From Spizellomyces punctatus DAOM BR117 (taxonomy: Eukaryota): DNA of 64,000 bases. Both the position numbers and the translations under genes were made by a program. The stretch lies in assembly GCA_000182565.2 (NCBI GenBank), contig KQ257466.1, one strand, 5' to 3'. The notes under the pieces are model-generated. The model saw only the letters and a list, made by a program, of their open reading frames with translations, was not told the origin of the DNA and made no database searches. Shown here piece by piece: positions 17,971 to 54,510 of this stretch. Each line of letters opens with the position of its first letter. Position 1 is the first letter of the stretch.

Positions 17971-18498
17971 TCTATATAAACCCCCCTCTTCTTCTTCCCT
18001 CTCGTTTCTTTATCCTTGACTCTCAAAGCATCTGCCCAACGCTCAAGTCTCAAGTCCATCATGAGAATACTGCTCTGGTGCCGAGGACCTTCCCGATGAC
18101 TACAACCAACTGGAACCAGCAACAATTACTCGGAACCAACAAAACTGCTATTATGCTGCCACATTTGTTGAGCTTGGTTGGTATCTACCAACAGCATTTC
18201 TTTTCATTCTGTCATTCATCTCGCTGACATGCAGTTTTTTATAGTCTCCAAGCCTTGTCACTGAAGATCCTCCAGCTTGCGAGTCTCCCCAATGTTGCAA
18301 AGACTCTGGCTTCAATGCCATCAAGAGTTCTGGATTACGTATTGCGTGTATAATTGTCTAGTAGTTAGTTAGCTTTTCCGAACCGGTTGTCGCTGGTTTA
18401 TTCCCTGGTGTGGAGGCACTGACATTTGTCTTTGCCAATACACTAATCTTGTCACTATTTATGCAGCGTGCACCAGAGGTGGACATTTCAAGAAATAG
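17971..18498 (+). other. Small spliced transcription unit, copy A (lncRNA, or recoded/pseudogenised small-peptide gene)
   Basis: TATA at about 17973, ATG 18061, predicted introns 18181-18244 and 18339-18466. Colinear similarity to 54013-54510(-). Confidence 0.65.
18372..18411 (+). ncRNA. Conserved structured RNA block, copy A
   Basis: GCTTTTCCGAACCGGTTGTCGCTGGTTTATTCCCTGGTGT is 39/40 identical to the reverse complement of 54068-54107. It forms the stem AACCGG/CYGGTT. Confidence 0.6.
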
Positions 18499-18637
18499 AT
18501 CAAGTATTCATTTGATAACTTTGTACACAGAAATCCCAGAACTCTCAAACTTCAAATAAACGGTCATTCTTTAAAGTATTGAATTTCCTTTCCAACTAAC
18601 ATCCATTCATTCTTTCGCTGAAAACCTTTCAGACCCT

Positions 18638-19757
18638 CTAGTTTCCAGCAACGACACCGGGTTCATGGTAAGGGTAATGGTACTGCTTTGAGAAATGGTG
18701 CCTGCGAGCCGGGTGCCTGAAGCGAGGGAGAACATCCCTGTGAGGCACGGCTTCAGTCATAACGTAGCAGGCTACACGATAGAGTGCCAGCAAGGAGGAT
18801 GCAAGCCAAAAGTACTGCATGAGGGACACTTTTAGTTGGTGATATTCAGAACGTTGGAGAGAAATAGAACTTACCCCGAGGATTTTGATAAGAGCTGTGG
18901 AGTGCAGAAACCAGCCTTTGGGATAGCAAATAAGGTTAAGAAACCATGTTTAGAATAAGAAAATTATTCATCTAGATGTTACCTAGCACACCAAAGACGG
19001 ATCCCGTCGCCAGCGTGAATAAGGTACCAGTCCAAGCAAGATCCCGGAACATGCTACGCACAAAATCGGTTAGCGTTGACATCTTTCCACACCCGATATT
19101 GACGGTAAATATGGCGCAAAACACTTACGCAGCAGCCGTCAAAACATAAGTGAAAGCCGCCAGTGGAGCCATCCAAATGCCCCAACCAGCATTGTAATCA
19201 TAGCGATCGTTAAGAGGGATTGAGCCAGCACCCATTAGACCAAGGGACAAACTGACAGCGATATAAAAGCTGCCCCACATTGTGTGGAAGATCGAAGCAA
19301 GGGTATCACGAGCACTGCATTGTGATGTACATATCAGCACCAAAAGAAGGGTATGATGCTTGAAACGAGAAGAAACTCACTTGAAAGCCCACATTCCAGC
19401 CGCGAATTGACCGAATCCGCCAAATGTCAACACAAAAGGCCAAAGCCTGAAGGGAGTCTCGGGATTCCCGTACCACTCTGTCAACCACGTCGCTACAATG
19501 AACGTTGCCGTCGCATAGCTGGCCAGGCCCATAGCCGACGGAGGAGCAATAGGCTTAAGGTGTATTCGAACAGGTGGAGGCGCATTGGGAAGGTCGTACC
19601 CTCCGCCTGTTGCGGTGCCAGGACGATCAGAAAGGGCGCCTCCTGCATCGCCTAGCGTGTATGTACTAGGGTATGTATAGTTTGTCGGGTTGTTCAAGGC
19701 TTGCGCGGGGGCGTCGCTTGGCTGACGACTCCCACGGAGGGCATTCGGGAGGTGCAT
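18638..19757 (-). CDS. GPR1/FUN34/YaaH (ADY2/SatP-like) acetate/ammonia transporter (multi-exon)
   Basis: IAPPSAMGLASYATATF, FGGFGQFAAGMWAFKARD, HTMWGSFYIA plus further TM helices across GT-AG introns. Confidence 0.88.
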
Positions 19758-21148
19758 TATGCAAAATATATGTTTTCAAAAGGTACAAGTCCCAGTTGGG
19801 ATATCAGATGCACTTGAGTTGTAAGTGCCTATACAAGATGAGGAGGGACCGAACGCACAATCTTTTTTAAATGCAGCCCCATATCCCAGGCGTCCGTGTC
19901 ATACGCGACAACGCATCTCTTCCCGGCCAGGGCCAGAACACTAGTCAACTTGTTCAACATGATCAATGACGTGCATTGGCCCCTTGTCGTAGTCAGAAGA
20001 TGGGGATACCTATCACATATATGCGCTGGAACCAATATAGCGAAAAATGAAGACCCTCAGTTAGTGACGAATGGATTACGTGCCGTGAACTCTTTACCCG
20101 TCTATTTTGGTCTCCTGGTCGCTGCCTCGGTTGATATTTGTTGATTTTTACATAGGTGCAGAATGGGACACCTTTACTTGGCATAGGATCATTTTTATTT
20201 ACTGACATCATTGTTGATGTCGAGGCGTAGAATATATTCCAAACTGTCAGATCAGAGCCATCAGGTTTACTGCTGTTGTGAACGACAAAGGCAGTACGTG
20301 GAGGCAGACAAGGATGGAGCATGACCTTGTGTATGCTATGGAATTGTTTCTATTCCCTCAACCATTGAGATTGCTTCTTATTCATGACATGGACAGGGTG
20401 TGGACGCTCGTACTCTGCGCGTTTACTTTGATGCTTAGGCACGCGCCAAGCTTATGGGACGAACTCAGCCGCCATTATTCGATAGGCAAAGGACACCTCT
20501 AATCTCCAGATATTGGGCAGCCATCAATTACTCTCTTTGTGTTGATGCGAGACCAATATTGAAGGTAGAAATAACCTGAACTTGGAATATTGAAAATATT
20601 TCTCGATTGGACACTATTTCTTGCCTTCATGCCTGTGCTTGCAAGATCGCGGACAAGGACACATGAGTTGAGTACTCATTGGTAATACAGACGCACTCAG
20701 GAATGCAAGGACAGTGCTCCAGAGATTCTTAAATGGAAAATAAATCAAAGGCTTTCTCGCGCAAAGATACAAATATGATTATCAGGGGAGTATTATATTT
20801 TCAAAGTAATATCCTTCAGATGGTAAATCCTATATCATGTCCCCTCCCTATGCATAGTTTGCCACCCGGTCGTTTTTGCCCGCCATGGATCCAAGGTGAT
20901 GACCATTACTTCTTTGCCCATCACGGCGGTCGGATCATCGATTTAGTTTCGGTTTGGTCGATGGACTTTCAGTGCATTTTTTTGACCTGCCGAATGACCG
21001 CAGGTATATCCCCGCAGTTTGTGTCGCATTTTATGCAGCTCCCGGGTAGCGTTTCATAATGATTGATACCCGTCGGGTTTGTATTGGTGTTTGCCGAAGT
21101 TAAAGTACCGGAAAGGCGATTAAACAGGAGAGTCTTCCGTGGCTCAAA

Positions 21149-53700: not shown

Positions 53701-53991
53701 AATACTGCAATGACGGTTGGATATCCCACATATACATAAATGTTTGGTGGGAATAACAGATAGCCAAAGTTCCTTCGCGCTTGTACCATTCTGCAGAGTT
53801 TTCTTCAGCTCGATGGTGCTCTTGGCATCAACGTTGACCACCCCTCCCGAACTCGATGAGCGGCTCTCGAACTGAAGAGCGGGCTTTCTCGTAAAATACG
53901 AACTAATGGGAAGGGACATTGGCTCGCAAGGAAGAAATCGTGCGAATGTCCATACGGGAGGTGAAGGACGATCGGACTCATCACGTGACAT
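50706..53991 (-). CDS. RECQL5: RecQ-family helicase, RECQL5-like (many exons, including 8- and 13-nt microexons)
   Basis: [56 protein letters not shown], Zn-binding CRH..C..CDVC, and a C-terminal RecQ5-like helical domain. Confidence 0.8.
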
Positions 53992-54012
53992 TGATCATGT
54001 AAGATGGATTTG

Positions 54013-54510
54013 CTTTAACACCAGGGGCTTGGTAGTGTAGAGGGGACAGAAACTGGCACTAGCTACTACACCAGGGAATAAACCGGCGACAACCGGTTCG
54101 GAAAAGCCAAGTAATTCCCTCCTTACAACTAAGTACTACTAGGCCCAATTACACATGCAATACATAACGGTTGTTCTAACCGGGTAACTAAGCCCACCAC
54201 ACGAGAGAAATCCTACTAAGCCCTTGATTCCGAAATTCTTTAGTCGGAGGATGTTCAGATACTAATTAAACCAGAATTAGACTCGGAATACGCGTGGGAA
54301 AATACGAAGACAACACATACCTGCGATCGTTGCAGCATAGTAGTAGCAATGTTTGCAAGGAGTTATGTTGTTGTTGTAGTCGGGTGGGCGAGGTCCTCGG
54401 CACCACCACATCGGTGTTCTCATGATTGATGAGAGTTGGGCAGATGCTTGTGAGTCGAGGATGGGTAAAGAGGAAAGAGGGAAGAGACAGCAAAGGCCCC
54501 CTTTTTATAG
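54013..54510 (-). other. Small spliced transcription unit, copy B; contains a 58-aa ORF (54423-54321 + 54261-54188)
   Basis: TATAAAAA at about 54509, intron 54262-54320, predicted second intron 54013-54163. Peptide MRTPMWWCRGPRPPDYNNNITPCKHCYYYAATIAVSEHPPTKEFRNQGLSRISLVWWA. Paralogous to 17971-18498. Confidence 0.65.
54068..54107 (-). ncRNA. Conserved structured RNA block, copy B
   Basis: GCTTTTCCGAACCGGTTGTCGCCGGTTTATTCCCTGGTGT on the - strand; 39/40 identical to 18372-18411. Confidence 0.6.

Follow-up and report, generated by a model that had tools for sequence, protein, structure and literature searches.

A diverged family of small, spliced and very abundant transcripts in Spizellomyces punctatus that may encode proteins with a CaaX-like end

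Introduction

Precursors of the a-factor type, known from Dikarya, combine a short open reading frame (ORF) with a terminal Cys-x-x-x, and the Neurospora member, mfa-1, reaches a very high transcript level. The MSDIN precursors form another small-peptide family, with a hypervariable core between conserved flanks. To our knowledge, no peptide pheromone system is known in chytrid-grade fungi. We analyzed here a stretch of 64,000 nucleotides (nt) from Spizellomyces punctatus DAOM BR117 (contig KQ257466.1), hereafter called the window, within which our copy-number statements hold. It carries two colinear small loci, copy A (17971-18498, plus strand) and copy B (54510-54013, minus strand). These are diverged members of a multi-copy, single-intron, TATA-driven RNA polymerase II family that is lineage-specific as far as our searches reach.

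Like the a-factor precursors (MFA1/2, mfa-1 and basidiomycete phb/mfa), the loci hold an ORF of tens of codons with a Cys-x-x-x right before the stop, and like them they belong to several diverged paralogues without conservation outside the ends. They depart from a-factor genes in that the N-terminus and blocks in the untranslated regions (UTRs) are conserved in the family. With the MSDIN cyclic-peptide precursors of Amanita they have in common the hypervariable core between conserved flanks; however, there is no sequence likeness and no processing-enzyme context, and here the frame differs between members. Finally, as in spliced long non-coding RNAs with short elements, we see short conserved blocks that are not ORFs, a labile frame and no protein relatives, whereas a synonymous bias among the listed variants, a conserved Cys-x-x-x and tandem stops set the family apart from such RNAs.

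Results

Two colinear loci in the window

An earlier reading of this stretch, made from sequence only, had proposed two colinear small genes, and our own reading, the alignment and blastn all agree with it: copies A and B are colinear from the TATA box onward. When each copy was searched against the whole window with blastn (word size 7), the two loci matched each other over a 3' block of 47 nt (93.6% identity, expect value E 1e-14), over 123 nt (71.5%, E 8e-11) and over 33 nt (82%, E 0.04), and nothing else significant was found. A 31-nt pattern taken from the 3' block has two matches in the window, and none of 100 shuffles had any match. No third copy was found in the 64 kb by nhmmer with a profile of A and B, the next best match having an E of 0.48. 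Identity between the two copies is a mosaic, reaching 94% in one block and being unalignable in others, and their N-terminal codons differ by one in-frame 3-nt indel.

Both loci share a promoter motif, GCGGTK-N(2-12)-CATGC, which has four matches in the window, all of them lying no farther than 100 nt upstream of either TATA box. In shuffled sequences the same pattern occurs 0.65 times on average, and 0 of 100 shuffles reach four. The features of the two copies are as follows.

Copy A
17923-17945, plus strand: upstream promoter motif GCGGTK-N(2-12)-CATGC, by pattern scan
17973-17980, plus strand: TATA box, by reading, colinear with the TATA box of B
about 17981-18010, plus strand: pyrimidine-rich tract, colinear with the CT tract of B
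18012-18106, plus strand: 5' conserved region within the 123-nt match, with the leader block, the first AUG (18061), the W-C-R-G-P codons and, in another frame, the D-Y-N codons
18177-18244, plus strand: putative intron, from the sequence, with candidate donors at 18167, 18177 and 18181
18245-18364, plus strand: exon-2 frame with V-T-E-D-P-P (ORF 18245-18361, 38 amino acids (aa), open from the acceptor)
18347-18358, plus strand: C-I-I-V end, followed by TAG TAG at 18359-18364
18365-18411, plus strand: 3' conserved block, by blastn (47 nt, 93.6%)
18380-18387 and 18392-18399, plus strand: hairpin stem, by folding, with the loop at 18388-18391

Copy B
54590-54577, 54575-54562 and 54533-54518, minus strand: three upstream motifs GCGGTK-N(2-12)-CATGC, by pattern scan
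54502-54509, minus strand: TATA box, by reading
54321-54470, minus strand: exon 1, start approximate, from sequence and reads, with the conserved leader, the first AUG at 54423 and the third AUG at 54338
54262-54320, minus strand: intron, 59 nt, GT..AG, from spliced reads
54020-54261, minus strand: exon 2, from read depth, 3' end approximate (54029-54010)
54188-54423, minus strand: 58-aa ORF, spliced, by translation, with the stop TAG at 54190-54188
54136-54338, minus strand: alternative spliced ORF of 46 codons from AUG 54338, ending with C-N-W-A (54153-54142) and then TAG TAG (54141-54136)
54068-54114, minus strand: 3' conserved block, by blastn with A
54099-54092 and 54087-54080, minus strand: hairpin stem, by folding, with the loop at 54091-54088

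Copy B, or a close relative, is transcribed and spliced

We mapped raw reads of an RNA run from the same species (run X9, about 6% of the run) to positions 53000-56000, that is to the region of copy B only, so that statements on copy A rest on its sequence. Among 26,394,413 records, 227,926 were mapped, nearly all on copy B, which gives the family a share of about 0.9% of the records, or roughly 1.7% of the read pairs if both mates are counted. The mapped reads are first mates with few exceptions (227,910 vs 16) and have a length of at most 60 nt, and X9 looks like a tag-type library. For this reason the depth relative to neighbouring genes is no fair measure of expression, and the share of all records is safer. 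The first-mate depth on the minus strand is distributed as follows.

54515-54615, minus strand: upstream flank, depth 21
54414-54514, minus strand: depth 11,304
54313-54413, minus strand: depth 6,451
54212-54312, minus strand: depth 18,077
54111-54211, minus strand: depth 41,083
54010-54110, minus strand: depth 20,748
53909-54009, minus strand: downstream flank, depth 54
Remainder of the RecQ-like gene, other neighbours: depth 2 or less

Altogether, 99.6% of the depth lies on one strand. At the start of copy B the depth rises from 15 at 54502 to 645 at 54458 and 26,704 at 54439; the transcript starts between the TATA box (54502) and about 54458-54439, and it ends near 54029-54010. The intron 54320-54262 is removed, with 266 + 1 reads spanning the joint 54261/54321, and loose-ended reads stop at the exon-2 edge in numbers of 12,554 and 8,274. 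Depth within the intron is 9-20 reads, compared with tens of thousands in the exons, and the GT..AG orientation of this intron places the RNA on the minus strand. The RNA reads therefore show that copy B, or close relatives of it, is transcribed from the minus strand and that the 59-nt intron is spliced.

A gene for a RecQ-type helicase (51185-53994, minus strand, with Helicase_C and RecQ_Zn_bind domains) follows copy B, its first ORF starting within some 30-40 nt of the 3' end of B, which leaves very little room between the two transcription units. We considered that copy B could be the 5' UTR of this gene and rejected it, since the depth drops about 400-fold (20,748 to 54) before the first ORF of the helicase gene.

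Two weaker signals were seen around the promoter. First-mate reads of the plus strand cover the promoter and exon 1 (54414-54615) at a depth of 52-104; nearly all of them differ from B, as at 54502, where 246 of 252 have T>C. This suggests divergent or antisense transcription at loci paralogous to B. Upstream of the TATA box of B, at 54616-54716, there is a minus-sense depth of 172, with variants at about 50% at 54610-54680. These reads and variants at 54610-54716 indicate that the family likeness, and some transcription, reach upstream beyond the promoter; read-through from tandem copies elsewhere and a minor upstream start are both possible sources.

The reads reveal a larger expressed family

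The two loci had been described as a pair, and this is where the sequence-only reading fell short. Of the mapped reads, 219,753 of 227,926 fit B only partly, with 137,553 at 90-95% identity, 63,456 at 95-99% and 26,917 at 99% or more, and many sites of B show other letters in 35-97% of the reads. At the adjacent sites 54349-54351 these shares are 85%, 57% and 34%, a pattern that needs no fewer than three or four additional variants expressed from elsewhere. Between 54413 and 54439, 95-97% of the reads are unlike B, and B is thus a minor contributor there. In the middle of exon 1, at 54349-54378, the depth dips 10-50 fold, to 795-5,058, compared with 26,000-29,600 at 54413-54439 and 40,000-50,000 in exon 2. 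We take this collapse as the mark of a hypervariable stretch between conserved ends.

Two other runs bear on the family. The independent run X2 contains a 206-nt contig identical to B (54029-54234). A contig from X1, a root metatranscriptome, is alike to 54138-54218 at 79 of 82 positions and then diverges; X1 also contains a spliced contig nearly identical to the plus-strand gene next to B, which indicates that this organism is present in X1 and that the diverging contig comes from a paralogue. From run X10, no contigs mapped to the region. Taken together, it is very probable that we are dealing with a real, unannotated-looking and very abundant family of small spliced genes.

Reading frames and the coding signal

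The 58-aa ORF of copy B, previously proposed as the product, is intact after splicing, and its first AUG has an A at -3. We mapped onto the three frames the 25 substitutions that fall inside the spliced transcript among the variants listed (40 of 114 rows). Six of the listed substitutions fall between the acceptor of B and the first TAG. In the C-N-W-A frame, five of them leave the residue unchanged and the sixth turns Ala into Val at the last position of the box (C-N-W-V in 54% of reads), while each other frame has 1 synonymous change of 6. With random placement of the same base changes, P is 0.004 for the C-N-W-A frame and 0.02 for any frame, on haplotypes that are unphased. The variants at 54219, 54220 and 54223 alter a residue in the 58-aa frame and are synonymous in the Cys-x-x-x frame, whereas the variant at 54415, present in 96% of reads, is synonymous in the first-AUG frame. 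The C-terminal half of the proposed 58-aa product is hence not the conserved frame, and what this ORF covers is probably no more than the N-terminal portion of the protein.

Two deletions seen in the reads connect these two parts. A loss of 1 nt at 54239 (9,617 of 39,527 reads) turns the first-AUG ORF into one of 74 codons, and a loss of 4 nt at 54224 (9,051 of 43,219 reads) into one of 73 codons, both ending in the same box. In A as in B, the Cys is the fourth codon ahead of the conserved TAG, although the two copies differ by a 2-nt indel. Back-up stops follow in frame, TAG TAG in A and B and TAG TGA TAG in the paralogue contig of X1 (loose-end consensus). The box of A, C-I-I-V-stop, has the canonical form and that of B, C-N-W-A-stop, a non-canonical one, prenylation being a prediction for both. 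With the frame-joining deletions and the Cys-x-x-x ends, the N-terminus proposed earlier joined to a Cys-x-x-x end is the most economical coding reading.

Copy A was said to keep its motifs spread over two frames. This is true of the D-Y-N codons, which lie in another frame, and the first-AUG ORF is only 12 aa long; on the other hand, V-T-E-D-P-P and C-I-I-V-stop share one open frame. The predicted acceptor of its intron is 18244/18245, with a branch-like CTGAC at about 18225. Only donor 18177 would connect an AUG with the exon-2 frame ending in C-I-I-V-stop, giving 46 codons from AUG 18153 or 65 codons from AUG 18096. The sequence at this donor is GTTGGT, and the donors of three introns examined in the window are GTATGT, GTAAGC and GTAAAC, which speaks for donor 18181 rather than 18177. 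No usable donor consensus could be drawn from the window, where a heuristic search gave 112 candidates, mostly false.

The frame remains open past the tandem TAGs for 42 or more codons in B (54135-54010) and for 64 in A (18365-18556), running through the conserved block as F-S-E-P-V-V-A-G-L-F-P-G-V. Read-through of the TAGs was nevertheless rejected, as 84% of reads add an in-frame TAG at 54133 and only 4 of 8 listed later variants are synonymous. The first-AUG frame also contains a CTTAGTA at 54220-54214, where a shift of +1 would lead the ribosome into the Cys-x-x-x frame; we take this heptamer to resemble the +1 frameshift heptamers of yeast Ty1 and EST3 (CUU-AGN-N). About 40% of reads lack its CTT (variants 54220 and 54219).

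A probable 3' hairpin

An 8-bp hairpin is probable in both copies. Seven of its pairs are identical; for the eighth, B has G-C where A has G-U. A G-U pairs only in the sense RNA, so pairing is kept on the sense strand only. The two sites of this pair also vary in the reads (54094 in 52%, 54085 in 45%) and would form A-U if both changes sit on the same molecules, while a third variant of the region, at 54090 (48%), falls in the loop. In the frame running on beyond the stops, these hairpin variants also fall at third codon positions. The folding energy is no better than that of shuffles (z -0.36 and -1.53). Of the structured RNA that had been proposed, what we retain is this single 8-bp hairpin with its G-C/G-U pair, but its energy does not distinguish it from shuffled sequence. 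A snoRNA, an H/ACA RNA and a small-RNA precursor were considered and rejected, given the lack of an Rfam match and a read depth that is not centred on the hairpin.

Searches for relatives and for an element class

At the gathering threshold, Rfam has no match in the whole window, and with E up to 10 there were only chance-level matches of 10.7-17.8 bits, compared with thresholds of 60-86. Queries with the 40-aa exon-2 ORF of B and with the 48-aa unspliced ORF of the first AUG found no word-sharing candidates among about 5.8 billion proteins, at lengths of 22-70 and 26-84 aa respectively. The exon-2 ORF had no match in 1.84 billion representative proteins, and the ESM Atlas gave no usable match. 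In metagenome contigs the 3' block and the box region each had 0 matches, and in viral contigs a pattern scan with a degenerate 3' block had 0 matches, all these scans covering identical strings only. Such a family was not found either in the literature on chytrid pheromones and CaaX proteins, on abundant zoospore transcripts or on Ste3 in Chytridiomycota, and a literature search with three short peptide motifs brought up only unrelated work. Likeness to metallothioneins, G-gamma subunits and proteolipids was rejected by eye only.

Concerning mobile elements, no terminal inverted or long terminal repeats bracket A, and B shows only a weak inverted match of 43 nt at 72% (54020-54062 vs 54659-54701, blastn E 0.13). 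The segment 54659-54701 may be a fragment left from a further member of the family, or it may match by chance. A Pfam scan of 51 ORFs, chosen among the 103 window ORFs of at least 110 aa, found no transposase or reverse transcriptase ORF nearby. Neither an Rfam family nor a transposon was matched by A or B. The earlier statement that the loci belong to no known family stands in the light of Rfam, of the three protein searches and of the absence of transposon features.

Neighbouring genes

A plus-strand gene beyond copy B contains an 81-nt GT..AG intron (55757-55837, donor GTAAGC, branch-like GCTAAC) that is confirmed by a spliced contig of X1 (224 nt, 1 difference). According to the Pfam scan, the minus strand carries at 37508-41311 a long exon with Ig domains of the CFAP65/HYDIN type. 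Other genes of the window encode a Zn2Cys6/Fungal_trans protein (29113-31596), a bZIP protein (27153-28064), a TRP-like channel (43331-45136), a GPR1/FUN34/YaaH protein (19377-19775) and a kinase that is split by an intron with a run of 19 A (11620-11745). Such a set of genes points to a zoosporic, flagellated fungus, above all by its CFAP65-type Ig domains, its Zn2Cys6 cluster and the fungal-specific transcription factor domain.

Discussion

The sequence-only reading had concluded on an undescribed family combining a small peptide and a structured RNA. The family is indeed undescribed, TATA-driven, spliced and very highly transcribed; but it is not a pair, the peptide frame has been revised and the RNA structure is modest. 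We tentatively favour, although at somewhat less than even confidence, an orphan family of small proteins with a CaaX-like Cys-x-x-x end and a hairpin in the 3' UTR. In this proposal the abundant spliced RNA of about 390 nt would be the mRNA of a small Cys/Trp/Tyr-rich protein. The protein would begin with M-R-x-L-x-W-C-R-G-P, continue with a hypervariable stretch, C-Y-Y-A-A-T and V-S/T-E-H/D-P-P, and finish with a Cys-x-x-x box directly before the tandem in-frame stops. Prenylation of the box might provide a membrane anchor or mark a lipopeptide for export. In some members, one uninterrupted ORF of 73-74 codons would lead from the first AUG to the box; an additional A in the run 54241-54239 of copy B would split this ORF into 58 and 46 codons, and in copy A the frames would be arranged in yet another way. 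The hairpin, 40-60 nt after the stop, and the 5' leader could act on mRNA stability, localisation or translation control, and the GCGGTK...CATGC motifs could account for a shared high expression.

Several observations weigh against such a protein, and most of them can be turned in favour of an abundant spliced non-coding RNA family in which the leader and the 3' hairpin blocks act and the ORFs are incidental, a possibility that we hold to be doubtful but serious. As the sequence-only reading had claimed, the strongest conservation between A and B is non-coding: the best conserved parts, the 47-nt 3' block (94%) and a 29-nt leader block, lie outside any ORF. Frames are not kept between A and B, whose peptides in the Cys-x-x-x frame are unrelated except at the ends, and none of the four listed indels in the reads (-1, -4, +1, +1) is a multiple of three; among them, the +1 at 54199, which is carried by 7,698 of 43,174 reads and by the X1 contig, disrupts the frame once more. 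The hairpin keeps its pairing through the G-C/G-U change, its paired sites being similar in variant frequency, and the three protein searches returned no relatives. Copy A retains all the conserved blocks even though its best donor, 18181, would give a transcript in which the box exon has no start and which offers no ORF. More specifically against the protein, the 46-codon ORF of B begins only at the third AUG, its C-N-W-A is a non-canonical CaaX box, and the synonymous count draws on the listed part of the variants. What a non-coding RNA leaves unexplained is that one frame keeps its residue in 5 of 6 listed variants (P 0.02 for any frame), that either of two independent indels is enough to restore one ORF of 73-74 codons, and that a Cys-x-x-x comes right before tandem in-frame stops in A, B and one paralogue; the lack of an Rfam match and a hairpin energy no better than shuffles do not help it either.

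It is unlikely, though less so than the explanations that follow, that both copies of the window are decaying and frame-broken while intact genes of 73-74 codons reside elsewhere, an idea that overlaps with our favoured one. It agrees with the 95-97% of reads that differ from B at 54413-54439, with the -1 and -4 variants that give one ORF where the state of B splits it, and with the stop after 12 codons in A. However, promoter motifs, TATA box, leader and the 94% 3' block have been kept while the rest drifted to about 70% or less, and such a mosaic of conserved and drifted parts in A and B needs continued selection on both copies; moreover, the 206-nt contig identical to B comes from an independent run, and single-base assembly errors in short runs could lie behind a broken frame. 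The 58-aa peptide from the first AUG of B (stop 54190-54188), with A as a frameshifted relative, would be suggested by the A at -3, by conserved N-terminal codons with an in-frame 3-nt indel and by the synonymous variant 54415. We nonetheless consider it improbable: 54223, 54220 and 54219 in exon 2 all alter the residue, only 3 of 11 listed variants are synonymous in the first-AUG ORF (8 in exon 1, 3 in exon 2), 54376 would make a stop, the ORF of copy A stops after 12 codons, and the unspliced 48-aa form has no relatives among the proteins searched. The figures for the first-AUG ORF also count against our favoured protein, which would share this N-terminal part. As for a transposable element or selfish repeat, such as a solo long terminal repeat, a miniature inverted-repeat transposable element or a short interspersed element, it would fit with the existence of more than two copies, with the weak 43-nt inverted match flanking B and with the variant-bearing reads upstream of its TATA box (54610-54680). 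Yet terminal repeats are absent around A and only that weak pair (E 0.13) surrounds B, each copy has its own TATA promoter and intron, the latter spliced in the reads of B, identity is a mosaic and not even, and there are two copies in 64 kb with no transposase or reverse transcriptase ORF nearby; this makes a mobile element highly improbable.

One would also wonder whether the favoured small proteins could be prenylated peptides of the a-factor type that serve a chytrid-grade fungus as pheromones or secreted lipopeptide signals. The lengths of 46, 65 and 73-74 codons lie within the range of about 25-100 codons of such precursors, and in this hypothesis the lipid-box end would be kept and the frame leading into it shuffled between members, B perhaps reaching its box via a +1 slip at CTT-AGT-A. 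We grant this only a slight chance. Unlike the situation of a-factor genes, the window has no gene for a Ste3-type receptor, an HMG or a homeodomain protein among its 51 scanned ORFs, and STE3-like receptors are described as occurring predominantly in Ascomycota and Basidiomycota (PMC12842992). Because of this distribution and of the absence of receptor and mating-type genes in the window, we do not assign the family to the a-factor precursors.

A transcript so abundant, for which no relatives were found, is likely to be relevant to how zoosporic fungi live, a group that has been little explored. Should the Cys-x-x-x end prove true, the loci would define small prenylated proteins or lipopeptides of a new family, outside Dikarya; should the RNA itself be the product, they would represent a new abundant structured RNA. 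In either case the family belongs in the gene models, and its strong and compact promoter, together with its UTRs, could be of use in work on those few chytrids that are open to transformation.

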